A stretch of 64,000 bases of DNA from Carcharhinus amblyrhynchos. Lineage: Eukaryota. Positions within the stretch are counted from its first letter, which is position 1. Every line of letters starts with the position of its first letter. The DNA is taken from NCBI GenBank assembly GCA_965287045.1, contig OZ336878.1, forward strand, positions 104,098,001 to 104,162,000, in the 5' to 3' direction. Shown in pieces: positions 1-64,000 of this stretch. Under the pieces are notes generated by a model that worked only from the letters and a program-made list of their open reading frames with translations, did no database searches and had not been told where the DNA came from. Made by a program: the position numbers and the translations under genes.

Positions 1-609
1 CTATTTCATGTGAGCATCATATTATGGAGCTAGTGAAACGCGTTCCTCTACTAAATTAGATCAGTCACATTGTGATCTTAGTATACTTCTTTCGAACTAT
101 ACGGCTAATATCCGTAATTTTACCGGCCTCGATTGTGGGAGCGGGCGAGATTCGGAGAAAGGCATTCTCCTTCGGCCTCAGGCAGGATCGTACGAACTTC
201 GGGCGCACGTGCTGGTAAAGTTCCGCCCCATGTCTACAAAAGTAGTGGCCGCAAAAACTTCTAATGCGCACATTTTCTCTGTCGTAGCGATCAAAGTAAA
301 CTTTTATATCGATTGTGCCTTTCATCTTAAAGTCAGAAATCCAACGGATTTTGTGTGAGAGATGGTAAGAATGAGGTGTGTGCAAACTGAATTAATATAC
401 TTTGGCATGGTACTAATATGGCGAAGTGAAAATTGTCTCCCATGACAACAGCATATCCGGCTGCGGCGCTAACCCGCCGCATTGAATTTTCTGCCCAGCA
501 CCCCACATCCATTAATTTAGAGAATGCCACCCGTATAAAGATTCCAGCGTCCAATAGATTAGAAAATTATCCCGTAAATTACATGAAAATTATGCAAGGT
601 ATGCCATAC

Positions 610-621
610 CTGGTCCCTTTC
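610..621 (-). CDS. 12-nt microexon (GKGP), in duplication copy 1
   Basis: cattccacgatcaatag|GAAAGGGACCAG|gtatgg; AG and GT kept in both copies. Confidence 0.45.
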
Positions 622-3600
622 CTATTGATCGTGGAATGCACATAGAAGAATACATAAGAATTGTGTTAAGAACAATGAAGTGATATGACAGGCATCATTG
701 CTAGATACATTTCTGAAAATATAGTGCCGGTGTACTGATGCGCCTCTCGTAAGTGCTTTCCAGACATGAGCCTCCTGATTATCAGGCCATGGGAGAGTTT
801 TATTGCATACATCTTCGTCTAATCGATATAAAGAGATCAAATCTCATAACTTACGTATGCAGAAATGTAGGAATATACGAATTAGGTGCAGGAGTACGAC
901 AAGTCTGCACTTATACATGGATAATTCAATTAAAATCTCAACTTTACGTTTCGGCGATTGATTCCATTGTTAGCTATCTGTGCGCACCTGCCGTTTAAAA
1001 GTATGGGGTACTTGCATCTCCCTCTCTCTGGTGAAATAATTCTACAGAGAAAAAAATACCTAGCTCCGTTTCAAATGGGTGATAACTTACGCATTTGCTT
1101 CTCCCCCGAGTCCCCGTTTTTCTTCAGAACATTATTTCAGCATTCACTTCGTCAATTCCATTCAGGATAATTTATGTTTCAAAAGGATCATTCCTCATTA
1201 TTCTAAACAAAGATGGATAGAAGCGCAATTTGTCAAATATTATACTTTTATAGCAGGAAATAGTCGGGTGAAATCTCACAGAAGTGTTTCTAGCACAATT
1301 ATTCCTTTTCTTAATTAAGGAGATCAAAACTATCCAGAATGCAACCGATGTGGGTTCCAAATACATTGCTGCAAAGCCAGCTTACTTTTATATTCAATTC
1401 TTATTGCACAACGGTTATCATTCGATTTACCTTGTTCACCCATTTTTGCCCTGCATATTAACTATTGGTGTCCTGCAGGAGAACAATATGTCTTTTTACT
1501 TCAGAGTGGTGTAATCTCGAAGCATTTAGATAATATGCGGAACTTCTCGTCTTCCTACCAAAGTAGAAATGTTAACTTTTCTCACCTTACGTTTTCTGTC
1601 CCACATTTTTACCTTCCGATTGAAACTATCTGTCATCAATTGCAGCGTTGACAACTTGCTTGCGCACTATGTGTCGTCAGAAAAAATGGCATTGATAATG
1701 TGCTTTAATCAACGCAGGTTATAAATAATTGATGCCCCGGCACTGATCACATTGGGACTGCAATCAATGCATAGAGTCAAACATAACTTGACCAGATTAT
1801 GCCTAATCACCGTTTCCTGCTGGCTAACCAATCATGTAACTACGCTAATGTTCATGTCCTCTTACTCTGTACAGAAACATCTGATGCGTCACGACTGATA
1901 AACGCTGGCTACACCCACATCCACAGTTTCCCATTTCTGCACGTTGCTTCCTCCTTCTTCAAGTAATGCTTATAAATTAGTCAAGCACCATTCCTTTTGC
2001 ACAGAAAGACATGGGCTCTGCCTAACTGAATTGAGACTTTCTAAATGCCCAAAAGATGTCAGATCTTTCTAAATGACATATGATATAAGACATGAGGATG
2101 GTCACAAGGAATTTGATCGAACAAGTTGGGGGCGAGGAAGGGAAGAGTAAAACTATTGGAAGTATAATGGTTAATAGGATGCAAAACAGCAGGATAACAC
2201 GTGAGGAGAATATTTCAACAACATCGAATGTCAGGAAAAAAGCTTAAAGGAAGGGGAACTCAGGCGATGTTATTAATGAAGGTGTTAGTATTCAAAAGGA
2301 AGGTACAGAAACTCGCATAAGCGCACTTTATCCGAATGCTCCTAGCTTCCACAAATCATTGCAAACAAGTATGATCTGGTGGCCATTATAGAGACATAAC
2401 AGCAAGTTGGTCATGACCGCGAGTTAAATTTCCAGGGGTATCAGACTATTCGGAAGAAGAGACAGGAAGATAAGGGAGATGGTATAACTCTGATATTTAA
2501 GAACGACATCAGGGTGGTAGTGATAGATGATATAGCTCCTATGGAAGAAAAAAGATGAATCAATTTGGGTGGAAATTAAAAATAGTGAGGAGAAAAAAAT
2601 CACTGATAGGCTAATGTATAGGCCACCAAACATTGTCATCTCGGTGGGACGAAAATAAATAAACAACAGATGCATGTGAAAACGATACAGCAATTATCAT
2701 GGGGGATTTTAATCCACATGTCTATTTGTCAAACCAGGTCAATCAAGGCAGCCTTGAGGGGTTGTTCATAGAATGTATCGTGATACTTATCTTGAACAGT
2801 ATGTAATGGAACCTACGAAGGAGGAATCTATCCTTGATGTGATCCTGTACAATGAGACAGGAATAATTAATGATTTTACAGTTAGGGACCCTCGCAAAAG
2901 AAGCAATCATAGTATGGTTGAATTCAAAATACAGATGGAGCGTGAGGGGGTAAAATCCAATGCCATTGTCTTGTGCTTAAACAAAGGTGACTGCAATGGG
3001 ATGAGGGCGGAGATTGGGATAAGATAGATTGGGAGCAAAACTTTATAGTGGCACAATTGTTGAACAGTGGAGGACTTACAAAACGATTTTTCACATTGCT
3101 CAGCAAAAGTATATGTCAGTTATAGGGAAGAACTGTAGGATAAGAGATAATCAGCCATGGATATCGAAGAAAATAAAGGACGGTATTAATTTGAAAGAAA
3201 ATGCACGCAAAGTGGCAAAGATTAGTGGGAAATAGAGGATTGGGAAAATTTTAGAGGTCAACACAAAGCCAAGAAAATGCTATGAAGGGAAGTAAAATGG
3301 ATTATGAGAGTAAACCAGCTCAGAATATAAAAATCAGATAGCAAATGTTTCTACGAGTGTATAAAACGGTAGAGTGGCCAGAGAAAATACTGGTCTTTTG
3401 GAGGATGTGAAGGGGGAATGTAATAATTGAAAATGAAGAAATGATTCGGGCATTGAACAGACATTTTGTGTCTTCACAGTGGAAGACACAAATAACATGC
3501 CAAAAATTGATGACAAGGTGGCTGTGACAGCTGAGGACCTGGAAGCGATCATTATGTCTACAGAGTAAGTGCTGGGCAAGCTAATGAGGCTATAGCTAGA

Positions 3601-6600
3601 CAAGTTACCTGGCCCTGATGGAAAGCGTCCCAGAGTATTAAAAGAGATGGCGGGGCAAATGGCAAATGCACTAATAGTAATCTATCTACACTTCGAAGGA
3701 CTCTGGTGTGGTTTCCACTGATTAGAATACAGAAAATGTGACGCCACTGTTTCAAAAAGGAACTGGACAATGGTGGATAACTATAGATCGGTTAGCTTAG
3801 CTCTGTAGCAGGGAAAATGCTTGAAACTAACATCGAGGAAGAAATAGCGAGACATCTGGATATAAATTATCCCACTGGAAGACACAACATGGGTTCAGGA
3901 TAGGCAGATTATGTTTGGCTAATTTGGTTAAATTTTCGAGAACTTTACGTGCGCCATTGACAATGGGGAACCTATGGATGTGGTGTATTTGGGTTTCCAG
4001 AAGGCATTTGACAAGGTGCCACACCAAAGGTTGCTGCATAACATAAAGGTGCACAGTGTTGCTGGTAACGTGTTAACATGGATAGAGGACTGGTTGACTA
4101 ACAGAAAGCAAAGAGTGGGGGGGGGGGGGGGGGCAGGGGGGAGGGTGCGGGAGTGGTAAATGTATGCTTTTCTGGTTCACGATCAGTAACGTGTGGCGTG
4201 CCCCAGTGATCAGTGTTGGGACGGCAATTGTTTACAACTTACATAGATGATTTGGAGTTGGGGATTAAGTGTACTGTGTCAAAGTTCGCAGGTAACACGA
4301 AGTTGAATGGCAGAGCAAAGTATGCAGAGGACACTGAAAGTCGGCAAAGAGATGTAGACAGTCTAAATAAGTGGACAAGGATCTGGCAGATGGAGTACAA
4401 ATGTGGTATATGTGACACCATCCATTTTGATAAGAATACCAGCAAAATGGACTAATATTTAAATGGTAAATAACGGTAGCATACTGCTGTGGAGAGCGAC
4501 CCGAGTGTTCTTGTGCACGAATGGCGAAAAGTTGATTTGTAGGTGCAGCAGGTAATTAAGGAGTCAAACCGAATTCTGTCCTTCATTGCCGGAGTTTAAA
4601 AACAGCGAGGTTATGTTGCAGCTGTATAAGGTGCTGGAGAGGCCAGACCTGGAGTACTGTGTACAGCCTTTATCTCCTTACTTGAGAAAGGATATACTGG
4701 CACTGGAAGGGGTGCAGAGCAGATTCACTAGGGTGATTTCAGAGTTGAGAGAGTTGGCTTATGAGTAGAGACTGAGTAGACTGGGACTATACTCATTGGC
4801 ATTCAGAAGAATGTGGGGAGATCTTATAGCAACATATAAGACGACGAAGGGAATAGATTACATAGCAGCACATGAAACTAGAACTAGGGGACGTGGCCTC
4901 AAAATGAGGGGGAGCAGATTTAGGACTCAGTTGGAGAAGAAGTTCTTCATGCAAAGTTGTGAGTCTAAGGAATTCCCTGCCCAGTGAAGCCACTGAGGCT
5001 ACCTCACTGAATGTTTTTAAGACAAGGATAGATAAATTTTTGAACAGTAAAGGAGTTAAGGTTTATGGTTAACATACAAATAAATGGAACTGGGTCCATT
5101 TATTGAATGGTGGAGCATGCTCGATGGGCCAGATGGTCTATTGTTGCTCCTAGTTCTTTTGTTCCAACGAACTGGCTTGTAGATTACTGTTTTCTGTCTT
5201 AATTCCTTCCTTATTTCGGTATATTCCAATCTGATGGGATCCTTCCAGGATCTGGAATATTTCCAGTTGCTATTTCATGTGAGCATCATATTATGAGTTA
5301 GTGAAACGCGTTCCGCTATTAAATTAGATCAGTCACATTGCGATCCGAATATACTTCTTTCGAAGTATATGGCTGATATCCGTAATTTTACCGGCCCCGA
5401 TTGTGGGAGCGGGCGAGATTCGGAGAAAGGCATTCTCCTTCGTCCTCAGGCAGGATCGTACGAACTTCGGGCGCACGTGCTGGTAAAGTTCTGCCCCATG
5501 TCTCCAAAAGTAGCGGCCGCAAAAACTTCTAATGCGCACATTTTCTCTGTCGTAGCAATCAAAGTAAACTTTTATATCGATTGTGCCTTTCATCTCAAAG
5601 TCAGAAATCCAACGGATTTTGTGTGAGAGATGGTAAGAATGAGGTGTGTGCAAACTGAATTAATATACCTTGGCACGGTACTAATATGGCGAAGTGAAAA
5701 TTGTCTCCCATGACAACAGCATATCCGGCTGCGGCGCTAACCCGCCGCATTGAATTTTCTGCCCAGCACCCCACATCCATTAATTTAGAGAATACCACCC
5801 GTATAAAGATTCCAGCGTCCAATAGATTAGAAAATTATCCCTTAAATTACATGAAAATTATGCAAGCTATGCCATACCTGATCCCGTTTCTGTTGATCGT
5901 GGAATGTAGATATAAGAATACGTAAGAATTGTGTTATGAACAATGAAATAATATGACAGGCATCATTGCTAGATACATTTCTGAAAATATAGTGCCGATG
6001 TACTGATGCGCCTCTCGTAAGGTGCTTCCCAGACATGAGCCTCCTGATTATCAGGCCATGGGAGAGTTTTATTGCATACATCTTCGTCTAATCGATATAA
6101 AGAGATCAAATCTCATAACTTATGTGTGCACAAATGTAGGAATGTACGAATTAGGTGCAGGAGTACGACAAGTCTGCGCTGCTATACATGGATAATTCAA
6201 TGAAAACCTCAACTTTACGTTTCGGCGATTGATTCCATTGTTAGCGATCTGTGCGCACCTGCCTTTTAAAAATATGGGGTAATTGCATCTCCCTCTCTCT
6301 GGTGAAATAATTCTACAGAGAAAAAAATACCTAGCTCCGTTTCAAATGGGTGATAACTTACGCATTTGCTGCTCGCCCGAGTCCCCGTTTTTCTTCAGAA
6401 CATTATTTCAGCATTCACTTCGTCAGTTCCATTCAGGATAATTTATGTTTCAAAAGGATCATTCCTCATTATTCTAAACAAAGATGGATAGAAGCGCAAT
6501 TTGTCAAATATTATACTTTTATAGCAGGAAATAGTCGGGTGAAATCTCTCAGAAGTGTTTCTAGCACAATTATTCCTTTTCTTAATTAAGGAGATCAAAA

Positions 6601-9600
6601 CTGTCCAGAATGCAATCGACGTGGGTTTCCAAATACATTGCTGCAAAGCGAGCTTACTTTCATATTGAATTCTCATTGCACAACGGTTATCATTCGATTA
6701 ACCTGGTTCACCCATTTTTGCCCTGCATATTAACTATTGGTGTCCTGCAGGAGAACAATATGTCTTTTTACTTCAGAGTGGTGTAATCTCGACGCATTTT
6801 ATGCGGATCTTCTCGTCTTCCTACCAAAGTAGAAAAGTTAACTTTTCTCACCTTACGTTTTCTGTCCCACATTTTTACCTTCCGATTGAAACTATCTGTC
6901 ATCAATTGCAGCGTTGACAACTTGCTTGCGCACTATGTGTCGTCAGAAAAAATGGCATTGATAATGTGCTTTAATCAACGCAGGTTATAAATAATTGATG
7001 CCCCGGCGCTGATCACATTGGGACTGCAATCAATGCATAGAGTCAAACATAACTTGACCAGATTATGCCTAATCACCGTTTCCTGCTGGCTAACCAATCA
7101 TGTAACTACGCTAATGTTCATGTCCTCTTACTCTGTACAGAAACATCTGATGCGTCAAGACTGATAAACGCTGGCTACACCCACATCCACAGTTTCCCAT
7201 TTCTGCACGTTGCTTCCTCCTTCTTCAAGTAATGCTTATAAATTAGTCAAGCACCATTTCTGTTGCACAGAAAGACATGGGCTCTGCCTAACTGAATTGA
7301 GACTTTCTAAATGCCCAAAAGATGTCAGATCTTTCTAAATGACATATGATATAAGACATGAGGGTGGTCACAAGGAATTTGATCGAACAAGTTGGGGGCG
7401 AGGAAGGGAAGAGTAAAACTATTGGAAGTATAATGGTTAATAGGATGCAAAACAGCAGGATAACACGTGAGGAGAATATTTCAACAACATCGAATGTCAG
7501 GAAAAAAGCTTAAAGGAAGGGGAACTCAGGCGATGTTATTAATGAAGGTGTTAATATTCAAAAGGAAGGTACAGAAACTCGCATAAGCGCACTTTATCCG
7601 AATGCTCCTAGCTTCCACAAATCATTGCAAACAAGTATGATCTGGTGGCCATTATAGAGACATAACAGCAAGTTGGTCATGACCGCGAGTTAAATTTCCA
7701 GGGGTATCAGACTGTTCGGAAGAAGAGACAGGAAGATAAGGGGGATGGTATAGCTCTGATATTTAAGAACGACATCAGGGTGGTAGTGATAGATGATATA
7801 GCTCCTATGGAAGAAAAAAGATGAATCAATTTGGGTGGAAATTAAAAATAGTGAGGAGAAAAAAATCACTGATAGGCTAATGTATAGGCCACCAAACATT
7901 GTCATCTCGGTGGGACGAAAATAAATAAACAACAGATGCATGTGAAAACGATACAGCAACTATCATGGGGGATTTTAATCCACATGTCTATTTGTCAAAC
8001 CAGGTCAATCAAGGCAGCCTTGAGGGGTTGTTCATAGAATGTATCGTGATACTTATCTTGAACAGTATGTAATGGAACCTACGAAGGAGGAATCTATCCT
8101 TGATGTGATCCTGTACAATGAGACAGGAATAATTAATGATTTTACAGTTCGAGATCCTCGCAAAAGAAGCAATCATAGTATGGTTGAATTCAAAATATAG
8201 ATGGAGCGTGAGGGGGTAAAATCCAATGCCATTGTCTTGTGCTTAAACATAGGTGACTGCAATGGGATGAGGGCGGAGATTGGGATAAGATAGATTGGGA
8301 GCAAAACTTTATAGTGGCACAATTGTTGAACAGTGGAGGACTTACAAAACGATTTTTCACAGTGCTCAGCAAAAGTATATGTCAGTTATAGGGAAGAACT
8401 GTAGGAAAAGAGATAATCAGCCATGGATATCGATGAACATAAAGGAAGGTATTAATTTGAAAGAAAATGCACACAATGTGACAAAGATTAGTGGGAAATA
8501 GAGGATTGGGAACATTTTAGAGGTCAACACAAAGTCAAGAAAATGCTATGAAGGGAAGTAAAATGGATTATGAGAGTAAAGCAACTCAGAATATGAAAAT
8601 TAGATAGCAAATGTTTCTACGAGTATATAAAACGATAGAGTGGCCAGAGAAAATACTGGTCTTTTGGAGGATGAGAAGGGGGAATGTAATAATTGAAAAT
8701 GAAGAAATGATCCGGGCATTGAACAGACATTTTGTGTCTTCACAGTGGAAGACACAAATAACATGCCAAAAATTGATGACAAGGTGGCTGTGACAGCTGA
8801 GGACCTGGAAGCGATCATTATGTCTACAGAGTAAGTGCTGGGCAAGCTAATGAGGCTATAGCTAGGCAAGTTACCTGGCCCTGATGGAAAGCGTCCCAGA
8901 GTATTAAAAGAGATGGCGGGGCAAATGGCAAATGCACTAATAGTAATCTATCTACACTTCGAAGGACTCTGGTGTGGTTTCCACTGATTAGAATACAGAA
9001 AATGTGACGCCACTGTTTCAAAAAGGAACTGGACAATGGTGGATAACTATAGATCGGTTAGCTTAGCTCTGTAGCAGGGAAAATGCTTGAAACTAACATC
9101 AAGGAAGAAATAGCGAGACATCTGGATATAAATTATCCCACTGGAAGACACAACATGGGTTCAGGATAGGCAGATCATGTTTGGCTAATTTGGTTAAATT
9201 TTCGAGAACTTTACGTGCGCCATTGACAATGGGGAACCTATGGATGTGGTGTATTTGGGTTTCCAGAAGGCATTTGACAAGGTGCCACACCAAAGGTTGC
9301 TGCATAACATAAAGGTGCACAGTGTTGCTGGTAACGTGTTAACATGGATAGAGGACTGGTTGACTAACAGAAAGCAAAGAGGCGGGGCGGGGGAGGGGGG
9401 AGGGGGGAGGGTGCGGGAGTGGTAAATGTATGCTTTTCTGGTTCACGATCAGTAACGTGTGGCGTGCCCCAGTGATCAGTGTTGGGACGGCAATTGTTTA
9501 CAATTTACATAGATGATTTGGAGTTGGGGATTAAGTGTACTGTGTCAAAGTTCGCAGGTAACACGAAGTTGAATGGCAGAGCAAAGTATGCAGAGGACAC

Positions 9601-20598: not shown

Positions 20599-20641
<43 letters not shown>

Positions 20642-53600: not shown

Positions 53601-56600
53601 TGAGCATCAGCAAAGAGACTAGTGGGTTCACACGGAGCCCAAACCAAATTCAAGGTAATAGAATTGCCACAAGGCCACCGCCTTCCCTTAGCACCTGAAC
53701 CTCGGGCTGTGATTTTAATGCAACTAAACTGATTACACGGAACATCACAAGCGTACCTCGTAATTCCCAGCCATAAGCCGCCAGTTTTGGCCAAATACAA
53801 AAATTTCAATACATCAACCAATACCAGAAATATTTTTTCTTCCACATACCATCAGTCTCTAGTCCTGTTGTGGCTGCAAAGAAAAGGGCGCACTATTTTC
53901 AGTTGAACTTTTGGGACGCGTGGCAATAAACCATCACCACAAATTCCACCCACCGAGCTTGACAGGTATGAAAAACTGGATCTTTCATTCGCACGACGTA
54001 ACGGTAGCGGATGAATCTATCGCAGAGCATTTCAGTTTAATCACTGCAAATTAACTTTATAGCTTGGTTACCTACATTCGACAATGTTGACGATTCGGTT
54101 GTGACTGCTGGCTAGTGAATTCCGAACGATATTTTGGCCAGCCGGAATTAATGTAGCATTCGGCATTTCCTCATCCATTAGGGGAACAGCGAGTGGAGAA
54201 ATAGCAAGGAGACATGTGAGCTAACACAGCGCCCAAATAGAATTGAAATGAATAAAGTCGGAAGAGGCATATGACAGAGGACTGGCCCAGAATCTTTTAC
54301 ATTTTTATATGCAATGGAAATATGACATAACGTATGAATGTTGACGGAATTCGGTGTTTCGTGGGGTTCAATCGCAATAGAAAGCGTAATTGCCAATTGT
54401 CCGTTGAATGGCTCGGTAACTCGATAATCCCATGAACCCTCTCAAGGTGAACAACAGGAAGCATTTTGAGTTTCATTTGAATAAAGAAACAAAAAAAAAA
54501 TCGCATGCTTGAGCGCTAAATGTAAGATGGGCATTAATAAATGTAAGAAATTCTACATGACCTCTAGGTCATTGAGTGTCTTTCAGACAGAGATAGATAG
54601 GTTCTTGATCAATAAGGGGATCAGGGGTTATGGGGAAAAAGCAGGAGAATGGGGTTGAGAAAAATATCAGCTGTGATTGAATGGCCAAGTGGCATAATCC
54701 TCCTATGTCTTGTGGTCTTATGGTTTTATGCCCTCTTCGTAGTGGAAATTGCAAATTTAAATCCATGCTGTTGTTCAGCAGTGACAGGCAATTGTTTTCT
54801 TATTTTCACACTCCACATCGTGAGACTGGCATGAATTTGGATTAGTTTGCAATGCTTTAATTGTCGATCTACGTTTGTTCGTATTGGCCTCGCCATTTCA
54901 CAGAGAACAACTGATGTAATTTGTGCGCAAATAACTTTAATTCATGAATCAAAGATGCCTGCCGCATTTGAATGGACGAACCATCACCCTCATTTGTTTT
55001 GGAACTCATTGAGGATCGGGTTTTTGCCTAAATGAACTCGCAAGAAGAATCCGCGCTATTGCAGTCTTAATAATGGTGAACTCAATACTGTCCTCTATTG
55101 GGAAACAGAAATGGAGGCGATTCACTGGCAAAACGTGGCTGCATTACAAATCGTTTCCCATCACAAGATGCAGTATTGCAACTCAAATGCTGACCAGCGG
55201 TATGTCTGAACGTTCACCTGCTGACAAGATCAGCTGCTGCACAAGATCAGCTGCTGCACAAAATCAGCAAGGAAACTACGTTAAGTGTAACCACCAATCT
55301 AATCAAAGCATCACCGAAATTTCGTTATTGTCACTCAGTACAAATCTTAGAAGCCTCCATGAAACAGCAACGCGGGTAGTTTCATCGCCATATGCAGCAG
55401 TTCACTGCAAAACCTCGCAAACCTTCACAAAATTGATTAGGAACTTCTGCCCATACATATATATACATACATATACATTACCTATACATAATGTAAAAAA
55501 AATCATTCCTACTTGTACTTTCTGCGCCAGGATTTAGTTTTTTCCGTAAATCTGAAAACAAAGGTATTTCAACAATTGAGCAACATGAGGCAAATTGCGT
55601 CTGCTTATCTGTTTAGAACGCGCTTTTACATTGATTATACTGAATTAAAGGGCACCTATCAGTTAAACATGTTCAATTGTGCGGGAAGTTGAACTAATTG
55701 GCGTTTCTTTCATTTGCGGAAGTGTGTTTCCAGAGAGATGATCATCATTTATATCTAAATATATATGGATTTACGAATATTCAATATTATAATATTAGCT
55801 TCCATATGGTCAATGTTTTTGAGCAATTGCCCAGGCCAGTGTCAGATTGTGGCCGTATAGAGTGCCTTTACCACCTTTGGTAATGGAATGGGATATCAGA
55901 TAATAATGTAACAAGTGTCATATTCGGCGCCGCCGATTTTGCACCAGCACTAATGGCAAACATCGGTGACAATAATCAATGAAATCAAATCTGAATCACG
56001 GTGAGGAAATCGTGATTCAGATTTGATTTCATTGATTATAGTCACATGTATTAGCATAGAGTGAAAAGTGGTTCTGCTTACTATACAGAAAAGCATACCG
56101 TTCATAGAGAAGGAAAGGAGAGAGTGCAGAATGTAGCGTCACAGTCATAACTAGAGTTTAGAGAAAGATCAACTTAATGCGAGGTAGGTCCATTCAAAGC
56201 TTTGATGGCAGCAGGTAAGAAGCTGTTCTGCAGTCGGCTGGTCCGTGACCTCAGACTTTTGTATCTTTCTCTCAACCAATGAAGGTGGAAGCGAGAATGT
56301 CCGGGGTGCGTGGTGTCCTTAATTATGCTGCTGCTTTTCCAAGGCAGCGTGAAGTATAGATGGAGTCGATGTATGGGAGCTGGTTTGCATGATAGACTGG
56401 ACTACATTCAAGACCCTTTGTACTTTCTTGCGGTCTTGGGCAGAGCAGGTGCTTCACCAAGCTGTGATACAGCCATGCAGAACGTTTTTTTATGGTGCAT
56501 CTGTAGAAGTTAGTGAGAGTTGTAGCTGACACGCCAAATGTCCTTAGTGTTCTGTATTAAAACAGAGACACTAGAAATTGGTAGGTAGTTGGTTGAAAGT

Positions 56601-59600
56601 AAAGGCCAAGAGTGGTTATGGCACAGATTTCCAGCCCATCGAAATCTTGTTGTTTCTTGGCAGGTGATCCAATCAGCACCATTTCTCCGCCCCAACCCTC
56701 GAGAAATGCAAACGTATTTTCCTTTATTGGACTCCAATTTCATTTTGAGCTCTTCTCCCTCATAGGCAGCGACTTCCAGGTTGCACGGAAGATTTTCTGC
56801 GAGCCTCTTGCCCAGAACCACATCTTTCACCTCGCTCTTGTACGATCGGGTAAAGTAACTGCTTGATTTGTATGCCGTATTGAAACATGGCATAAAGTGT
56901 ACCCCCTCACAACCGCTGCCTTCCCAATCTCATTTTATACTAATAGAATCGCACTAGCTTTTCCAATTGAAATCATATACCAAAAATCGCGGGTTCCAAT
57001 TTTATCTGCTTTGAATCTTCCCATCATTACCAAAATGTGGTGCCCAGAACTGCTCACGCTACATTAGTTGTGGTTTAATCAGAGCTTTATGCATATTCAG
57101 CATCATTTTATAAAGTCAGAATCCTATTTCATTTCCTAATTGCTCCATTAACATTTTCTGACAGGTTCAAAAATATATACGCACTATCCCTCACTTCTTC
57201 TTGATAAATACCAGTGTCTATCATTCTCCAGTCCGAAAAGTTAGCCATATACTTTGACTCAATGTTTTCTCTCTTTAAGCCTTTGTTAAAATCGGATCTA
57301 CATATAGTTTCCTCTTCATAGGTTTCCTGTTTTCTGACAATAATTATACGTGGACTTTAAATTAAAGCAATTCACACAACATTCATGGCATTCACTTAAT
57401 CCACTGCCTCCATTATTTCATTAAGATTACTCAATTATCTCCATTACGATCTGCCTTTACATATCAGCTATCTTTAGCTGAATACTCCCCGAGACTCTGC
57501 TAAATCGTCCTGCGCTTATTGCTCATGAAGGATTACCCATCATAATGTTAAACTTACTGGTCTTGACGGTACTAGGAACCTCCGACTACTCTTTCGAGAT
57601 TATTCCAATCACATTTACCGTCCTTCTATTCTCTTGGAACCCACTTCCATCATGCGAGGAAACAATTCTGCCCTCCGCCACCGCACTCCCTCTACCACAG
57701 CAGCTCCCCCGCACCACCCTTCCCCCATTACCCCCCACATTCCGTGACACATACAGATCTTCTGGAGCCATGTGCGTTCCAGTTCATCGGACCAGGTGAC
57801 TTGTCCACCCTCAGCATAGTCAGAATTTCTGGTAAAAACTGTATCACACCGTCCACTACCTCACCATTTTGTTACCCTTCCAACGCGCATTTACACAGTT
57901 AACGCTCATACAAAGCCTTTAAATGTTCTAGCCCCGGCCTGCATCTCTGAATATTTAGCATAATGGTCCTAATTGATCCACCCCTCTCCTTCCGACCTGC
58001 TGAGATTTACATGCTTGTTTAAGAGCCTCGGATTGCTTTTACGCTGCATGTCTACTTGAATATGGCTGAACGAATCCACGTGACAGATTATCATGCGCCT
58101 CTCCCTCATTCATCAGTTTTTAAAATCTTCTCCGTAATCCAAAAACCATTGATATTGTTACCTATTGCCCTTGTCATATTGTACATCGTCTGTTCATGAA
58201 ACACATCTTACTCAAATGTCTCTCACTATTACCATATCTGACAGTGTTCGATTCCATTTCACCCTGGCTGGATCCGCATTCACACCACCGAGGCTTCCCA
58301 TCCTCCTGGTCGAAATTTGACTTCAGATTGTTACTTATTCTACTTCGATTTAAAAAATATTTTATGGAGCTATGACCAGACGTCCCCAAGTATTGTCCCG
58401 TGGCCATTTGATCCAATCGCCCACTTAATTCCATAGCACCAGATCCAGCAAAACATTCAACTAATTTGACCGAGAGCATACTGGTAAAGAAAGTTCTCTA
58501 GAACACATTTCTGCAATACCCCCTTTCCTTATGCGCTCATCTGATACATTTTTCTCCTATATTTGTGTGCCTTTAGAACCCACAGGATCAGCACTCTAGT
58601 TGCTCTTCAACAGCTCTCTGATGCCCATGTGTGTCTGTCGGCAGGGCGAATGGACAAAAATTGCCATTTGTCAATTTATTGCCTTATTTGGCATGGTTTT
58701 GATCTTACAGGAGGCATAAACCTTCCCAGCTCTCTCGCCACATGGTGAAACCATTCACATTTCTTTCAGCGGCTTGCCGGCTACTGCGATGTTAAAGTAC
58801 TTAATATTCGCCACACTACTGGAGACACGGGTAGCAGCAGATCACAGCCATTGGCCTCCGGCCACCTCTTGGAGTGTTTTCCTTTTCTGCGAATGTGGCA
58901 TTACAGTTCTGGAGAGAGATTATTTTCTGGATCCAGACGTGCTCCTTTTCAAAATGGAGACGAACGCGTATTGCCTCATCCGACAGCAGAAAACATCCAA
59001 TTCTGCCGGTTGATTTGTCGGCCAGCAACATAAAGGAATATTCAAGAAATCCTAGAGGAAACACAGAAGAAATTCTTGAACCAAGTCATTAAAAGAATCT
59101 GGAAATTACTCGCACAGGGATGATTCTTCCGGGCTCAGAATCATCATCAGACTAAAATGAATTAAAAAAAGTCAAGCTTTTTATGAACGCAGTTGGCGCT
59201 AATGATACGCTGCCCACCGCCTAACACATTTGGCGTGTTTTCTGCCCCTCTTGCTTCCAGCGCAGAAAGAAGTCCGTATTATTTCGCCTCAGATGTCAGA
59301 AACCAACCTAACACAATTCAGGAATAGAAAAGTTTGCCTGCTCATGTGATTGTAGATTTGTGAATATTTTACCTGCCAGTTCCTTTATCCTTTGAACTGT
59401 TGATGCAAGAAAACATAGAAATTGGAAAGCAGCAGATAATTCCTTTGCCTCCATGAATTCGTTTTCCGTCCGGCATGTACGAGATTTCATCCAGTGTGGA
59501 ATCGCATATGATTATTACCTCTTTAGCTGTGCCAAATGATAAGTTAAGCGATATACGTTTACTTGGGTGAACGAGAGAGTAAAGTCGTATCCAATTAGCC

Positions 59601-62600
59601 GTTGCGTTTTTAAGCAGGCTTCGACCGAATGTATACCTTTATTTGATTACCAATTCGGCTTTGAATAAGGACGGGAGAGATGCCTGCCACTCCTACCTAT
59701 TAAATTAAGAGTTACAGAGGTCATAGAGTCATAGAGATTTACAGCATAGAAACAGGCCTTTCGGCACAACTTGTCCATGCCACCCTTTTTTATTTTATTT
59801 TAAACCCCTAAGCTAATCCTAGTTACCTGCATTTGGCCCATATGCGTCTATACCCATCTTACCCATGCAACAATCTAAATGCTTTTTAAAAGACAAAATT
59901 GTACCCGTCTCTACTACTACTTATGGCAGCTTGTGCCAGACACCAACCTCTGTGAAAAAATTACACCTCTGGACACTTTTGTATCTCTCTGCTCTCACCT
60001 TAAACCTATGCCCTCTAGTTTTAGACTCCCTTACCTTTTGGAACAGATATTGACTATCAAGTTGACCTGTGCCCCTCATTATTTTATCGACCTCGAAAAG
60101 TCTTCTATGCCCCAGAGAAAAAAGTCCCAGTCTACCCAGTCTCTTCTTAGAACTCAAACTATCGAGTCTGGGTAGCATTTTAGTAAATCTTTTCTGCACC
60201 CTTTCTAGTTTAATAGCATGCTTTCTATAATCGTTCTGAAATCTTAACTGACCATTTAATAAGATAAGCTGTCTGTTTATCACTTTTCACCTCTTGCTGG
60301 GCATATCAGAACATGCCAAATCGCAAGGAAACAAAGAAATTCCACTACTTCCGCCGTCCACTAGGCAACAGCTAAGCAGCCGGGGGAAACGCATCATTAG
60401 GACGAAAATTAAAATGTCAAGAAAATGGATGTAGATGAAGCAGGAGAAGACACTGAGTTAAGGCCATGCCTTCGGACTGAACGCACATGACATGACTCTG
60501 TCTCGGTGCGATTGCATTCTTCTTCAAATGTGGTGACTACGTATTTTGGAGGAGTTAGTGCCGCTAGTATGCCAGGCTTTTGATGTGATTTGGTTCAATT
60601 CATTATTGTCACATGTATTGGTACACATCGAAAAGCATTGTTTTTTGCGCGCTGTATGAATGGCCCTTCGTGCAAAATAATTTCCAGGTCTCAGACAGAG
60701 GCCCACCGCTAAGGAACGAAGGACATGTGGATCGGCGGACAGTTGAATGGAAGGGCTGGTGTTGGGCCGCAATCCTTCGGACTCTGGAGTCCCCGGCTAG
60801 GTTAACTCCACACCAATTATTATTGCGGCATGTGCGACTTTAATCAATTAGCATTGATGTTTCATTTCCCAGATTTGGGCTTCTGAAAACCCGGAACAAG
60901 ACAGCATGAGATACATGGTGACAAATTGGTCAAATTGTTCAGTCTTTTTTTCCTTTGTTAATTACATATTCAACCATGTTTTCGACGTTTACTTTGAAAC
61001 ATGAAAAATGTCCCCACGAAGTTCGCAGGAGAAACGGCATCTAAGCTGATTGATTGCACGTCTGACACTGCTAAATTGGGATGTGGTGCTGTAGTTGAAC
61101 AAAATAAAATCTCATGTGACATGGCAATCTATACCTTGCTGATCGTTACAATGCAGGAGTAGGTTCTTCGGCCCATTGGGTTTGCAATGTCTCTCTGAAA
61201 GGGCATCCTACCTAATTCCACTCCCCTGCCTTGTACATTTTTTTTTTGTTTTTAGATAGATTCCCTTTCTAATACCTTCATCGAACCTGTCATTGTATAT
61301 TGTACACTGCAACCGTTCGCTGTGTGAAAACAAACGTGTCCACGTCACTTCAGACCCTTTTGCCTAATATTTCGAATCTGTGCTGTTTAGGTCTTGATGC
61401 TCTCTCTGGAGGGAACAGTTATTCACTATTTGCCCGGCCCGTTGCCTTTAGGACTCTGAATCCATCTATCAAATCTTCTCTTAGTCTTTATTTTCTGTAA
61501 GGAAAACACATGCAATATCTCTGAACTATCCTCATGGATTCAGCTTTTCCTCTTAGAATCACTAACGGGAATCTCTTCTGTGCCCTATCCAATGCTTGCA
61601 TATCATTCCTTCATTGAGTATTCTATCGATGATAAAGAAGTTAGAAAACGAGTACTGCTGCGAAGTTAGAACGTTTAAGACTTTATCAAAATAGCTAACT
61701 ACCCATTTTACTATTAATCCTGACCACAGAATCCAATGATGTGTGGAAAAATGATGTATGCACGATTAATCACCATGTAGTAAATTAGTTTTGACATTGA
61801 GTGCCAACTCCTTCCCAATAAGTTGTGATTTATGTACTCTGAATCGACTTCTATGGGAAAGTTATCCGTCTGGCTCACGTTTCCTTTGATGGAAGGGTGG
61901 AGCCGGGGGTTGGTGGGGGGACGGGGAAGGGGGTCGACGAGGGTGGGGGGATCGTGGGGTGGGGAGGAGGAGCGGTTATCAATACATATTAATCCAAGCC
62001 GCTAATAAACTCCATCAGAGTAAAAACAAGAAAATTACTATGGACGCTGTGACTTGAAAGGAAAAAGTAGAAACCAGGAGCATCTCAGCGGGTCTGACAG
62101 TATTTCTGGAAAGAGAATAGTGCTAACATTGGAGCTAACGTAGGAACTATGCTGATGGATGGAATTGTTCAGGTCTTCGTTGACGGTGTCCAGTGTTAGA
62201 GTAATCGTTGCAGATCCTTAATTAGCGGAAAGTTTCAAACATACACCAAGAATTTCGTTCACCACTCTCTGTGACTAAGGTTGCAGCCAGAGTCATGGAT
62301 ACTCTGTTAGGTCCCAGATGTAATATTCATCAACATAATTAGTTATAACTGTTTGAATATGACTTGATTCTATGACAATCAAAAAAAGAAACGAAATATG
62401 AATGATATTTTAAAGAATTTATATACAATATAATACTTTACCAAGCTGTAGACGCAATCTCTCGTTCTCTGAAAAAGAAAGTTGAATGAATAAGGAAAAC
62501 CTCAACTTTATTCAGTTCAAATAATTCCTTCGCACTTACCAAGGTTATATTTCCACGAGTAATAGAGGCTTACTAGTGTTTGGTGAAAATCTTTCGTGTT

Positions 62601-62717
62601 CACAGGGTCCTCTTTTAATCTAGGCCTCTGAAAGGAATGTATCAAGAAACAAATAAAACGGAGAGATGGAATTCCACCCTTAGTAACTATTCATCTTACC
62701 TTTTTTAAGTGCATCAG
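610..62717 (-). CDS. Partial multi-exon gene (3' part): chain of ~27 symmetric phase-1 microexons encoding a coiled-coil/low-complexity region, resembling a butyrophilin/BG-like cytoplasmic tail; 5' exons presumably lie beyond 64000
   Basis: Joined translation of exons listed below: xDALKK-ENERLRLQL-VQRIKELA-DLRKKLNPGAEST-TTTGLETD-ESTGEKAP-ESTGEKAP-AATSLEGVTQ-ERDALQVKL-AETLKALK-ARPPMSLVTQ-DLKGKVKA-GIDPKCK-ECKQLLQRT-MRQLLEKTA-GPKGKFL-ATTEELYS-ECKKLLQAC-MRQLLLKDI-DGIFEFES-EIEKLLEQLHHA-GTTGADEDTHSHQSYLQKLIQ-ENDLSLIPK-TDIVREKEK-EFQALKSHCFGT-ETGS-GKGP, with no stop. Splice sites are seen in the sequence. That all exons belong to one gene, and the family assignment, are inference. Confidence 0.65.
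2090..5165 (+). mobile_element. CR1-type LINE ORF2 (endonuclease + RT), degenerate
   Basis: MDVVYLGFQKAFDKVPHQRLL, LGRQLFTTYIDDL..VSKFAG, LYKVLERPDLEYCVQ..SPY; CR1 3' end gaatggtggagca..gatgggccagatgg; many stops and frameshifts. Confidence 0.92.
5878..5889 (-). CDS. 12-nt microexon (ETGS), in duplication copy 2
   Basis: cattccacgatcaacag|AAACGGGATCAG|gtatgg. Confidence 0.45.
7355..10445 (+). mobile_element. Duplicate of the CR1 LINE above
   Basis: Same motifs offset by ~5266 bp. Confidence 0.92.
10445..11660 (-). mobile_element. Older, decayed CR1-like LINE; its 3' part is at ~6810-7330 (and ~1540-2070), interrupted by the plus-strand CR1
   Basis: Reverse-strand CR1-like text; ORF remnant VKAVWLTIRYFKCRKSLVGAAYEP resembles the CR1 endonuclease region. 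Confidence 0.55.
11665..12375 (-). mobile_element. CR1 LINE 3' fragment with a nested SINE 3' piece (~12055-12170)
   Basis: RCHSLRIRGR..TEMRRYSFTQRVVSQWNSLPQ..FKRRLD; tagaaacatagaaac tail. Confidence 0.85.
13074..13109 (-). CDS. 36-nt microexon (EFQALKSHCFGT); frame stays open to a stop at 12853 if the donor is skipped
   Basis: ctgc-poly(t)-acag|AATTTCAAGCC...GGAACAG|gtcagg; very strong acceptor. Confidence 0.55.
15340..15732 (-). mobile_element. HE1-type tRNA-derived SINE
   Basis: gggaggaaac..ggagc..ccagggaaaacccac..ctggcgctgtgaggcagcagtgc..gtgccgcc. Confidence 0.8.
17136..17162 (-). CDS. 27-nt microexon (xDIVREKEK)
   Basis: tttactttcatgcag|CGGATATTGTGCGTGAGAAAGAAAAAG|gtaaaa. Confidence 0.75.
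17458..17484 (-). CDS. 27-nt microexon (ENDLSLIPK), or terminal exon ENDLSLIPKSKLQR*
   Basis: ctaacaatatatttag|AAAATGATTTGTCCCTTATTCCCAAGA|gtaaac; both sites moderate. Confidence 0.45.
17695..17757 (-). CDS. 63-nt exon (GTTGADEDTHSHQSYLQKLIQ)
   Basis: catttcccacgaaccgtcag|GCACCACTGGA...TTGATACAAG|gtaaag; starts xTTG like the 24-nt exons. Confidence 0.6.
17990..18860 (+). mobile_element. Penelope-like element remnant (GIY-YIG region)
   Basis: aatctagtctactgcattcgctgcctccaatgcagcctcctctacatt translates as NLVYCIRCLQCSLLYI. Confidence 0.7.
19040..19720 (-). mobile_element. CR1 LINE 3' fragment, decayed
   Basis: Reverse-strand CR1 text (ccctcataatcttgtacacctc, ggcgaccagaacc). Confidence 0.7.
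19825..19860 (-). CDS. 36-nt microexon (EIEKLLEQLHHA)
   Basis: cattctctgttgctag|AAATAGAAAAGCTGCTCGAACAACTACATCATGCTG|gtgagg; ExxKLL motif as in the ECKKLL exons. Confidence 0.75.
20604..20675 (+). repeat. (CA)n followed by imperfect (CT)n microsatellite
   Basis: Seen directly. Confidence 0.95.
21003..21115 (+). mobile_element. Solo Penelope pseudo-LTR fragment
   Basis: gagcagcgctcc..aagct..ccaaata..gttggacttt..gtgagacttctta..tccaacgccggcatctccacatca, matching the ends at 36680-36793 and 42380-42500. Confidence 0.8.
22640..22663 (-). CDS. 24-nt microexon (DGIFEFES)
   Basis: cgttcattgttcag|ATGGCATATTTGAGTTTGAGTCAG|gttaac; weak donor; ends TCAG like ATTEELYS. Confidence 0.5.
22838..22864 (-). 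CDS. 27-nt microexon (xRQLLLKDI)
   Basis: cttgtatttcag|TGAGACAACTGCTTTTAAAAGATATCG|gtaagt. Confidence 0.8.
23964..23990 (-). CDS. 27-nt microexon (ECKKLLQAC)
   Basis: tgtttgttcaaatcctag|AATGCAAGAAACTTCTTCAAGCCTGCA|gtacgt; read-through of the donor would give ECKKLLQACST-stop. Confidence 0.7.
24420..24508 (-). CDS. Candidate alternative terminal exon (GKQWNIPRIRRSQVTSPDNEAYSLLVEYR*)
   Basis: ttagttctattcttgcag acceptor; phase-1 ORF containing a YxxL motif. Confidence 0.35.
25429..25452 (-). CDS. 24-nt microexon (ATTEELYS)
   Basis: ttctctgtcttttcacag|CCACCACAGAGGAATTGTACTCAG|gtaaaa. Confidence 0.75.
26402..26422 (-). CDS. 21-nt microexon (GPKGKFL)
   Basis: tttattctatattccag|GACCAAAAGGGAAATTCCTAG|gtaatg. 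Confidence 0.65.
   Translation of the reverse strand, partial: DQKGNS
26523..27301. other. Two assembly gaps flanking a (GAAA)n-like purine-rich tract (26721-26830)
   Basis: N runs; the long ORFs in the track here are artefacts. Confidence 0.99.
29379..29700 (+). mobile_element. HE1-type SINE
   Basis: ggtggcacagtggttagcattgctg (tRNA box-A-like) ..tttgcatgttctcccc..ggtgctccagtttcctcc..gggctgaatggcct. Confidence 0.85.
29801..29827 (-). CDS. 27-nt microexon (xRQLLEKTA)
   Basis: catttaccttgcag|TGCGACAACTCTTGGAAAAAACAGCAG|gtaaat; paralog of 22838-22864. Confidence 0.8.
30915..31215 (+). mobile_element. tRNA-derived SINE of a second family
   Basis: gtgacgtagtgg..gggttcaaatcccac (box B) ..aaatctggaatt..; family not assigned. 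Confidence 0.6.
31445..34020 (+). mobile_element. 5' half of a CR1 LINE: repeated 5' UTR, ORF1 (SGNH-esterase-type) and start of ORF2
   Basis: VVISGLLSVPRASETRN..NTWLHSWCRMEGFTYLGHWDSFRGRW..YKKDRL.LNWRG; ORF2 start ttcaatgcgagaagt (FNARS). Confidence 0.8.
34351..36793 (+). mobile_element. Penelope-like element (RT + GIY-YIG, frameshifted) with inverted 5' arm
   Basis: HNVFSFDNQFFIQPNGTAM..AP..ANTFM, YTRDINDIFFFW, FLDTCISI, LHFSSFHP..KEAIPYGQ, WYIGKT; 34351-34870 is an inverted, diverged copy of ~36240-36750. Confidence 0.92.
36795..37790 (+). mobile_element. Decayed CR1 ORF2 endonuclease region, continuing the host element split by the Penelope insertion
   Basis: ELNIQG..TF.RK-like text, attaatcatgggtgaattta; host 5' part at ~34030-34350. 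Confidence 0.55.
38860..39310 (-). mobile_element. CR1 3' fragment, abutting a SINE 5' piece at ~38795-38870
   Basis: gcattccagacc..ttttcctcaaatc..atcctggtaattctcctctgcac. Confidence 0.75.
39340..39366 (-). CDS. 27-nt microexon (ECKQLLQRT)
   Basis: catttatttttcag|AATGTAAACAACTTCTGCAAAGAACCA|gtaaga; clear paralog of 23964-23990. Confidence 0.8.
39530..40080 (-). mobile_element. CR1 RT fragment
   Basis: LGPYAFTTYINDFGKG..IASFADDT. Confidence 0.8.
40800..41121 (-). mobile_element. HE1-related SINE with gtaacttcattgc...tgtgactaataa tail
   Basis: tgggaggaaaccggagcaccc..gaacgtgcaaactccac..ctggcgctctgaggcagcag..gtgccaccatgccgccc. Confidence 0.85.
41437..41457 (-). CDS. 21-nt microexon (GIDPKCK)
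   Basis: ttttgtttttcggttttattag|GAATTGACCCGAAGTGTAAAG|gtaaac. Confidence 0.65.
42015..42500. mobile_element. Rearranged Penelope fragment: inverted body (42015-42348, minus) fused to a plus-strand pseudo-LTR
   Basis: CSDEEDCNRHLQMLKHALLRTEY..LI.RQF homologous to 35670-35830; pLTR ends ggcatctccacatca. Confidence 0.85.
42728..42751 (-). CDS. 24-nt microexon (DLKGKVKA)
   Basis: atgttcatttgcag|ACCTGAAGGGCAAAGTAAAGGCAG|gtacga. Confidence 0.65.
43603..43649 (-). CDS. Candidate alternative terminal exon (AGNRGHTEEEETRYH*)
   Basis: Strong acceptor with branch-point-like tactaac (tttttcttctctactaactgcag), 139 nt after the VTQ exon; AATAAA at 43586-43591. Confidence 0.45.
43789..43818 (-). CDS. 30-nt microexon (ARPPMSLVTQ)
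   Basis: ctgacttttaag|CCAGGCCGCCTATGTCTCTTGTGACACAAG|gtaaga; AAG acceptor is weaker. Confidence 0.55.
43830..44390 (+). mobile_element. CR1 3' fragment, decayed
   Basis: ttggagtgtagtctacagttttggtcca; atgaggaagaatttg..tggaattctcta. Confidence 0.7.
45090..45113 (-). CDS. 24-nt microexon (AETLKALK)
   Basis: tgtttctgtctcacag|CTGAAACGCTCAAGGCACTGAAAG|gtaagt; near-consensus sites. Confidence 0.8.
45176..45705 (-). mobile_element. Relatively young CR1 3' fragment
   Basis: gaacataacataagaacataagaaataggag tail; ggcccttcgagcctgccccgccattcaa. Confidence 0.85.
46339..46365 (-). CDS. 27-nt microexon (ERDALQVKL)
   Basis: ctttattccctttcag|AGAGAGACGCACTGCAAGTAAAGCTTG|gtaact; similar to ENERLRLQL. Confidence 0.75.
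49695..49724 (-). CDS. 30-nt (or 27-nt via NAGNAG) microexon (AATSLEGVTQ)
   Basis: tatttctctcag|CAG|CAACCTCACTTGAAGGAGTGACACAAG|gttaat; shares its GTGACACAAG end with 43789-43818. Confidence 0.6.
50483..50768 (-). mobile_element. HE1-type SINE
   Basis: gacactaaggggcaatttagcatggccaatc..ggactgtgggaggaaac..ggagcacccggagg. Confidence 0.85.
51585..51842 (-). mobile_element. SINE, left partner of the 812-bp duplication
   Basis: gcaatgaagttac..tgggaggaaactggagcac..ctgtgaggcagcagtgctaacca. Confidence 0.85.
52133..52156 (-). CDS. 24-nt microexon (ESTGEKAP), copy 2
   Basis: Identical to 52945-52968, 812 bp away, inside a tandem duplication. Confidence 0.7.
52945..52968 (-). CDS. 24-nt microexon (ESTGEKAP), copy 1
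   Basis: ctgcatttctctgcag|AATCAACAGGAGAAAAGGCTCCTG|gtaaga. Confidence 0.75.
53850..53873 (-). CDS. 24-nt microexon (xTTGLETD)
   Basis: cccttttctttgcag|CCACAACAGGACTAGAGACTGATG|gtatgt; paralogous to the next two exons. Confidence 0.75.
55513..55551 (-). CDS. 39-nt microexon (DLRKKLNPGAEST)
   Basis: cctttgttttcag|ATTTACGG...AGTACAA|gtagga; donor moderate. Confidence 0.55.
55966..56045. repeat. Inverted repeat: 29-bp perfect stem with 10-nt loop
   Basis: 55972-56000 ataatcaatgaaatcaaatctgaatcacg is the reverse complement of 56011-56039. Confidence 0.95.
56020..56545 (-). mobile_element. Rex1/Babar-like LINE 3' fragment
   Basis: TTLTNFYRCTI..LPYIDSIYTSRCLGKAA; gatttgatt..gtcacatgtatt tail, also seen at ~60585-60670. 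Confidence 0.8.
56640..58500 (-). mobile_element. Ancient CR1-like LINE, highly decayed
   Basis: tggtgcccagaactgctcac..tgtggtttaatcagag..; CR1-like 3' end at 56640-56860. Confidence 0.55.
58816..59051 (-). CDS. Candidate alternative terminal exon (GFLEYSFMLL...CCYPCLQ*)
   Basis: ttcttctgtgtttcctctag acceptor; phase-1 frame open for 77 codons to TAG; AATAAA at 58675-58680. Confidence 0.35.
59373..59396 (-). CDS. 24-nt microexon (VQRIKELA)
   Basis: ttttcttgcatcaacag|TTCAAAGGATAAAGGAACTGGCAG|gtaaaa. Confidence 0.7.
59715..60225 (-). mobile_element. CR1 3' fragment
   Basis: LERVQKRFTKMLPRL..RLGRLGLFSL..ESKTRGHRFKVR; catagagtcatagag tail. Confidence 0.9.
61140..61610 (-). mobile_element. CR1 3' fragment, decayed
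   Basis: ggttcttcggcccattgg..; ccatctatcaaatcttctc. Confidence 0.6.
62442..62468 (-). CDS. 27-nt microexon (ENERLRLQL)
   Basis: caactttctttttcag|AGAACGAGAGATTGCGTCTACAGCTTG|gtaaag; heptad-like. Confidence 0.75.
62700..62717 (-). CDS. 18-nt microexon (xDALKK)
   Basis: ctctatttcttctcacag|CTGATGCACTTAAAAAAG|gtaaga. Confidence 0.7.
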
Positions 62718-63420: not shown

Positions 63421-64000
63421 ATTTTTTTTTCTCTGAATACGTGGTAAAAATTACGTGGACACCTGATGTTGCAATGGTTTCACTGATTAACGACCATGAC
63501 AGTTTACAGTTTCACATCATTACAATCGCAACATATAGACCAATGGTGATGTAATCCAGGATTGAATTTGAGTGTCAATCTTGGAAAGGGCTAACTTGAT
63601 TTTCTGCCCTGTAGAACACAATTCATAATTCTGAGGTGTGCCAGACCAGCTAGGAAAATTAGAAAGTGCTATCTCTGCAAGATCTGCTTGAAGCATCCAA
63701 TCAGTCTGAAGTGGCTTCAGCAAATTATCATGGAGAAAGCTATTAATTTACCCAATAGTTCGTGCATAGATTTAATGCTGCAATCCCGAAGAACAAGGCA
63801 AGGCCGGACCTTCCTGACAATTCTCCATGATCAGGTGAATGATGCAAGTACATACAACGAAGAGTGGAATATTGGTTGGAATAATCCGCACCATTATGCT
63901 TATTGCTCGTAATTTCAAATTGTGTGATCCGTGGCAATGGGTGAGCCGCTTTGCTGAATATGTGCGCACAGATACTGTATAATCTAACTTAGTATCGATG

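Follow-up and report, generated by a model that had tools for sequence, protein, structure and literature searches.

A run of symmetric phase-1 microexons in a shark genome, likely the middle of a ~405-kb gene for a coiled-coil protein with a C-terminal SPRY domain

Microexons in the window

The window analysed here is a 64-kb stretch of the 2.9-Gb genome of Carcharhinus amblyrhynchos (G000:C9:104098001-104162000). This vertebrate DNA is rich in repeats and offers no long ORF that is informative. Its minus strand carries an array of 24 supported phase-1 exons of 12-39 nt each (618 nt in total, with a translation of 206 aa), and the array runs on past both ends of the window. The exon peptides are present, in order, in a 945-aa catshark protein model (P0001). 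In the following list, 'gene A' is a tandem paralogue that lies directly upstream.

62700..62717, minus: coding microexon, 18 nt, phase 1-1; 5/5 residues identical to P0001 118-122; paralogous exon in gene A
62442..62468, minus: coding microexon, 27 nt; 8/8 identical to P0001 124-131
59373..59396, minus: coding microexon, 24 nt; matches P0001 133-139; paralogue in gene A
55513..55551, minus: coding microexon, 39 nt, with a Pro/Gly/Thr linker start; matches P0001 141-152
53850..53873, minus: probable linker microexon, 24 nt; strong acceptor; similar, like-placed 24-nt exons in gene A; no clear catshark match
52945..52968, minus: probable linker microexon, 24 nt, first copy in a recent tandem duplication; strong sites; flank resembles a gene A exon region
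52133..52156, minus: probable linker microexon, 24 nt, copy 2, identical; within duplication 51582-52651/52378-53463 (92%)
49695..49724, minus: coding microexon, 30 nt, weak sites, NAGNAG acceptor; colinear with P0001 163-171 at a low score
46339..46365, minus: coding microexon, 27 nt; matches P0001 173-180
45090..45113, minus: coding microexon, 24 nt; matches P0001 182-188; strongest splice sites of the window
42728..42751, minus: coding microexon, 24 nt; matches P0001 190-196
41437..41457, minus: probable linker microexon, 21 nt; good sites; fills the P0001 197-201 spacer
39340..39366, minus: coding microexon, 27 nt, first Cys-Lys-x-Leu-Leu-Gln repeat exon; matches P0001 203-210; paralogue in gene A
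29801..29827, minus: coding microexon, 27 nt; 7/8 identical to P0001 212-219
27782..27817, minus: coding microexon, 36 nt, weak donor, 3' border uncertain; matches P0001 221-231
26402..26422, minus: linker microexon, 21 nt; colinear with P0001 233-238; paralogue in gene A
25429..25452, minus: coding microexon, 24 nt; matches P0001 240-246; paralogue in gene A
23964..23990, minus: coding microexon, 27 nt; 7/8 identical to P0001 248-255
22838..22864, minus: coding microexon, 27 nt; 7/8 identical to P0001 257-264
19825..19860, minus: coding microexon, 36 nt; 8/11 identical to P0001 266-276
17136..17162, minus: coding microexon, 27 nt; colinear with P0001 278-285; paralogue in gene A
13074..13109, minus: probable coding microexon, 36 nt; very strong acceptor; gene A exon of same length and place; low identity to P0001 287-297
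5878..5889, minus: probable linker microexon, 12 nt; fits the P0001 296-303 Gly/Ser linker; within the 5.3-kb duplication
610..621, minus: probable linker microexon, 12 nt, second copy; fits the same Gly/Ser linker (P0001 296-303), within the 5.3-kb duplication; upstream flank resembles gene A
39290..39307, minus: unsupported candidate, 18 nt; lies in a repeat that occurs 8 times in 864 kb; the exons on either side are contiguous in P0001
24216..24242, minus: unsupported candidate, 27 nt; matched by neither catshark nor gene A; its two neighbours directly follow each other in P0001
17695..17757, minus: unsupported candidate, 63 nt; weak acceptor; no catshark or gene A match
1..10546, unstranded: tandem duplication of ~5.3 kb (1-5262/5270-10546, 97%), a blastn self-match; one 12-nt exon per copy
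51582..53463, unstranded: tandem duplication, 0.8-kb period, 92%, a blastn self-match; carries the identical 24-nt exons

Splice sites were scored with a simple weight matrix, at thresholds of 3/3, lengths of 12-63 nt and one candidate per donor. The first-pass annotation had proposed the plus strand and shuffled sequence as controls, and at these strict thresholds the contrast is clear: the minus strand has 19 AG..GT candidates, 16 with a length divisible by three (3n) and 12 with an open phase-1 frame, and the corresponding plus-strand numbers are 5, 2 and 0; block-wise dinucleotide shuffles (n=60) gave a mean of 0.9 and a maximum of 3 candidates (binomial p 7e-6). With loose thresholds (1/1) the contrast fades (27 on the minus strand versus 19 on the plus) and single exons were therefore called by homology. 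Seventeen of the 24 exons were picked by similarity to P0001 and the remaining seven on splice strength, position or paralogue match.

The translation of the 24 exons aligns colinearly with P0001 117-304 (score 515), with 118 identities over 206 aa, a figure that is not independent of this selection. None of 300 shuffles of the exon order scored above 153. The alignment shows no gap across masked stretches and therefore, as judged from sequence, no conserved exon seems to be hidden there.

The array end points given previously (62717-62700 and 621-610) are real exons with AG/GT borders. About 27 microexons had been claimed; 24 have orthologue, paralogue or positional support. The other three are probably 39307-39290, 24242-24216 and 17757-17695, because with these the 24 become exactly 27 exons coding for 242 aa. 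In the catshark protein the exons on either side of these candidates follow one another directly, and the three are without support. Two arguments offered for the array carry little weight. That its exons end in G or A is the background state of 82% of AG..GT candidates with a donor-like site, and the closest of the 'paralogous pairs' lie inside whole-DNA tandem duplications in which the introns were copied too.

Other units in the window include two of 15 nt (AG..GT; 52791-52805 and 51979-51993), one per 0.8-kb copy, with a good donor and a poor acceptor. The 54-nt candidates 6312-6259 and 1041-988 were ruled out by a phase-1 stop, and those at 9968 and 4702 lie inside a 24-copy repeat and were also discarded. 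The duplicated 24-nt exon unit (51582-53463) is seemingly present in two copies in sequencing runs X1 and X2 and perhaps singly in organism C, as one contig at single-copy depth suggests; this hints, weakly, at a difference in exon number among closely related species.

The whole gene and its relatives

The array is part of a real gene and is larger than first claimed. An ATG exon is found ~198 kb upstream (right) of the window and a terminal SPRY exon ~142 kb downstream (left), where the first-pass annotation had predicted a PRY-SPRY exon. The window is likely, from sequence comparison, to be the middle of one gene of ~405 kb; the 62 kb and 27 exons proposed previously were an underestimate, set against this span and an estimated 130 exons. 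All junctions and the 5' end are predicted from DNA; six sequencing runs look like genomic reads from relatives that differ by 1.5-4%, and they showed no splice joints.

The terminal exon is intact and in phase 1. It encodes a divergent SPRY domain (Pfam SPRY, E 1.4e-9; Pfam PRY is not matched). Its matches in PDB, both by sequence and by fold, are all PRY-SPRY domains, with the butyrophilin BTN3A1 as the top sequence match, about level with TRIM21; the structure model is of modest quality (pLDDT 60). The closest database relative is P0001, which is 63% identical and in which SPRY is the only family. A search with the P0001 rod gave two S. torazame models (P0006 and P0003) and a ray model with nine isoforms. 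The orthologous RefSeq models are XP_038671249.1 (S. canicula), XP_072329362/3.1 (S. torazame) and XP_069775418-28.1 (N. bancroftii). These elasmobranch models (63% identity in SPRY and a mean of 68% in supported exons) are partial or split, and carry uninformative names (A33-like, golgin A6-like, trichohyalin-like or uncharacterized) that do not convey the architecture. The catshark and ray proteins are predicted: P0001 is without the N-terminal third, and P0003, P0006 and the ray models are without SPRY.

P0006 (the N-terminal part) has an overlap in sequence with P0001, and together they map to a single colinear chain that starts at the ATG exon and finishes at the intact SPRY exon. From this overlap, summed by hand, the catshark protein has about 1,490 aa; the shark product is likely to be a soluble protein of ~1,500 aa. 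Spliced phase-1 chains scored 1503 for P0006 and 1745 for P0001, compared with 388 and 369 on the plus strand and 546 and 600 for the reversed protein. Filtering by score and region kept 99 of the 144 chain nodes, with a mean identity of 68% to the catshark proteins. These 99 supported exons (two of which are probably mis-bounded) contain no stops and have a median spacing of 2.9 kb; 53 are of 27 nt, 28 of 36 nt and 10 of 24 nt. Dividing rod length by mean exon length puts the total at probably ~130. The original proposal of a cartilaginous-fish gene of symmetric phase-1 microexons coding for a coiled coil is upheld.

The first coding exons (L030:7539-7670; L100) encode a short N-terminal peptide, acidic and with Tyr-Ile-Asn-Ile as its core, that is near-identical in gene A, gene B and P0006 and more conserved than the rod. 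At a guess, it may be a binding or phosphorylation motif.

Gene A (G000:C9:104389231-104757721, L033 to L100, minus strand, ~368 kb) starts ~398 kb further upstream. Its SPRY exon is broken by frameshifts and stops, and since only ~34 kb separates this from the last matched rod exon, gene A seems to be without most of the C-terminal rod. Gene A has colinear partners for 48 of the 99 exons, at an identity of at least 62% (pS 0.40, pN 0.17, dN/dS 0.34, 0 stops), a substitution pattern that is one of purifying selection between the two paralogues. Related divergent SPRY exons occur at seven more loci (C9:106.38-106.50 Mb and C16:60.45, 61.08, 63.07, 63.15, 63.74 and 66.44 Mb), six of which carry arrays of 27/36-nt phase-1 coiled-coil exons on the coding strand; C16:63.07 has few. 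In a ten-row SPRY tree, which contains no butyrophilin and omits two family and two conventional loci without a recoverable frame, the gene and five frame-recovered loci are separated from three conventional shark SPRY domains (100/100). The gene, its tandem paralogue and the related loci form a gene family.

An intron of gene A (the L045-equivalent region, G000:C9 near 104.508 Mb, ~410 kb in window numbering) contains a 571-aa frame resembling, by its appearance, a retroviral envelope.

A search of the ESM Atlas returned look-alikes in chordate clusters with PRY-SPRY (1,277-1,802 aa; scores 0.93, 0.91 and 0.76), which serve as leads to possible kin; the rod part gave generic coiled-coil matches. 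The SPRY part of P0001 compared with proteins of 519-1654 aa matched nothing but P0001 itself. A full-text literature search, covering few subscription journals, found no description of such a gene.

The predicted rod and its heptad register

Hydrophobic residues recur with a period of 3.5. They occupy codons 2, 5 and 9 of the 36-nt exons and mainly codon 4 of the 27-nt exons. Directly adjacent exon pairs comprise 9+12 codons, that is, three heptads, in 30 of 70 cases and 9+9 in 20 of 70. The heptad register continues across exon borders. Whole-heptad exons (a multiple of seven codons) are rare, with only 2 among the 99 supported exons (2 of the 24 in the window), so that skipping of a single exon shifts the register.

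Modelled in two copies, catshark P0001 196-345 forms a parallel in-register dimer whose heptads are unbroken over residues 241-294, across several exons. The model scored 0.55, the best control 0.00, with a contact agreement of at least 56% and pLDDT of at least 59. In calibration, 21 of 30 solved microbial pairs passed the mark used for such dimers, and none of 23 single chains; among eukaryotes it was passed by 17 of 29 pairs (7 of 16 in animals; 1 of 7 where there is no older relative) and by none of 30 single chains. The model concerns the catshark segment, not the shark protein itself, and coiled coils can pass because a predictor has memorised them. The rod is described here as a predicted parallel two-chain coiled coil broken by Gly/Pro linkers.

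The exons had been described as interchangeable modules. Their order is the same as in the catsharks, as both the colinear chains and the order shuffles indicate, and with so few whole heptads and a register that crosses the borders this description finds no support. The exons are frame-neutral, not register-neutral. Copying of exon units together with splicing in a fixed order therefore fits better than free shuffling.

A fixed-order rod and the alternatives

We consider it probable (roughly 0.7) that splicing of the gene mostly keeps to one fixed order and yields a likely soluble coiled-coil rod of ~1,500 residues with a C-terminal B30.2/SPRY domain, grown by exon duplication and serving as a spacer or scaffold. 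The protein would consist of the short acidic head, the parallel two-chain rod with its Gly/Pro linkers and the B30.2/SPRY domain, which would bind a partner protein. The gene would have lengthened as phase-1 exon units (27+36 nt, equal to three heptads) were copied in tandem; splicing would be mostly constitutive, with single-exon skipping as a minor process. The product would be a long, hinged cytosolic rod, a spacer or scaffold of ~190 nm if fully coiled (by arithmetic, at 0.15 nm per residue), and the dimer would carry two B30.2 heads at one end. It might act like the soluble 'zipper protein' tail of chicken BG, or as a butyrophilin tail without its membrane anchor.

The first-pass annotation had seen the array as the cytoplasmic tail of a butyrophilin- or BG-type receptor, and had suggested looking for signal, IgV, IgC and transmembrane exons beyond position 64000. 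ORF scanning with Pfam, motif patterns and paralogue comparison did not find them. Pfam recognised no Ig family in 89 of the 93 minus-strand ORFs (at least 75 aa) around and above the first coding exon; the other four lie downstream of that exon, and ORFs cut at 10-kb borders could escape the scan. P0003, P0006 and P0010 gave no Pfam match and P0001 gave SPRY only (no Ig, RING or B-box). Pattern searches found no Ig motif on the coding strand, and no RING and one spurious B-box in 864 kb. A weak V-set search of the genome (150 of 1793 candidates scored) gave none near the locus. There is no transmembrane stretch in four orthologous proteins (highest 19-residue hydropathy 0.79-1.28) and no signal peptide by hydropathy, the N-terminus being acidic without a hydrophobic stretch.

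Above the ATG exon, the gene and gene A share blocks that are ~70% identical, indel-ridden and without long frames. Hydrophobic windows in this DNA lie outside the shared blocks, except for one beside a non-coding block. A conserved donor site terminates one shared block 1.7 kb above the ATG exon; splicing from it would place an in-frame stop just before the leader in the present gene, and this block is a putative 5' UTR exon. In both paralogues the phase-1 frame stays open through the 14 nt that precede the ATG, which makes an upstream coding exon conceivable.

It is very unlikely, then, that Ig and transmembrane exons were simply missed and that the array is the tail of a membrane-anchored butyrophilin/BG-like receptor. 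Such a reading draws on the open leader, on the abundance of SPRY genes in the region and on the plan of butyrophilin tails (small coiled-coil exons in phase 1 that lead to a B30.2 exon of the same phase; PMC4046983, PMC5938342), but it is opposed by the absence of Ig families and patterns in the DNA scanned, of a coding block common to the two paralogues upstream and of a transmembrane stretch in the orthologues, and by the mere ~29 kb between the ATG exon and the last exon of the previous paralogue. As no signal peptide, Ig, transmembrane or RING/B-box part was found, a butyrophilin/BG receptor tail is not supported. That the stretch might represent several shorter genes, or a decaying duplicate, rather than one transcript is suggested by the RefSeq division of the S. 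torazame orthologue into P0006 and P0003 and by the broken SPRY exon of gene A; the single colinear chain of overlapping P0006 and P0001 from ATG exon to intact SPRY exon, the stop-free supported exons and the dN/dS of 0.34 make this very unlikely.

Combinatorial splicing is a further alternative. Cells would pick subsets of the symmetric exons, as in the micro-exon genes (MEGs) of schistosomes, to make rods of varied length and register; we regard this as unlikely, and equally doubtful that such a process would tune the reach or partner choice of the B30.2 head. In its favour, every exon is of phase 1-1, and no stop arose when the exons were put in 200 random orders, although the lack of stops at junctions follows from the donor consensus. 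The nine ray RefSeq isoforms, which are predicted models, show in-frame deletions of 8, 8, 11 and 12 residues, the longest of which corresponds to one exon of the shark gene, together with one 23-residue change and two end variants. Certain ESM Atlas look-alikes also have names with high isoform numbers (X51; a lead, at a score of 0.76). Against it, exon order is kept between shark lineages, single skips break the register, 425 of the 597 columns are invariant in the nine-isoform alignment and only one isoform combines two internal changes. The ray models, with their few and mostly single-exon skips, show at most that skipping of some exons is feasible. It is quite unlikely that the gene belongs to an undescribed cartilaginous-fish family of giant B30.2-headed rods in which cell-by-cell skipping among more than 100 symmetric microexons sets length and register and only matching isoforms pair.

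Among known systems, butyrophilins (BTN/BTNL) likewise place small coiled-coil exons before a terminal B30.2 (PRY-SPRY) exon, but have 'a few heptad repeats' (PMC4046983, PMC5938342), compared with ~130 rod exons here, mostly of 27/36 nt; no Ig or transmembrane part was found here. The same papers describe the chicken BG tail as a long coiled coil encoded by 13-36 tiny split-codon exons of 21, sometimes 24, nt, a soluble form of which (the 'zipper protein') regulates actin-myosin in gut epithelium. The likeness lies in the many tiny exons of a long coiled-coil tail. BG differs in having signal, IgV and transmembrane exons, a final 3' UTR exon and exons that are whole heptads, whereas the shark gene has 2 of 99 such exons, an array 4-10 times larger and the B30.2 exon last. 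By analogy, the 'zipper protein' is the nearest functional precedent. Schistosome MEGs (PMC4015677) have most of their coding sequence in small symmetric exons, as does the shark gene; they encode small, mostly secreted proteins with demonstrated exon skipping, whereas the shark product is very large, without a signal peptide and bound by its rod register, and the skipping in the ray models is far from the MEG situation.

TRIM-type proteins share the C-terminal PRY-SPRY, and the region of the shark gene is full of SPRY genes; the RBCC-B30.2 type differs in its RING and B-box, neither of which Pfam finds in P0006. Enterophilins, soluble leucine-zipper and B30.2 proteins of guinea-pig enterocytes, are likewise soluble coiled coils capped by B30.2 but are much shorter than the shark protein. 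By the features compared, the gene is not a butyrophilin, BG or TRIM member; it is the small-exon coiled-coil plus B30.2 design in a new form.

Even in the plain reading, with one protein encoded by an estimated 130 consecutive exons of ~30 nt over 400 kb and separated by introns of ~3 kb, the gene is extreme. It provides a test case for the recognition of long microexon runs during splicing and for protein growth by exon duplication, with very different duplication ages within one locus, and bears on the origin of the butyrophilin and BG tail design. Should skipping prove wide, it would be a vertebrate counterpart of the parasite micro-exon genes; should it operate cell by cell with pairing of matched isoforms, it would amount to a vertebrate combinatorial splicing code inside a coiled coil. 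The gene also marks a soluble coiled-coil/B30.2 family, split and misnamed in annotation, in the SPRY-gene regions of sharks. The neighbourhood is immune-gene-rich: the same contig (G000:C9) carries a dense V-set exon cluster and many SPRY exons at 83.8-85.6 Mb and 96-112.5 Mb.
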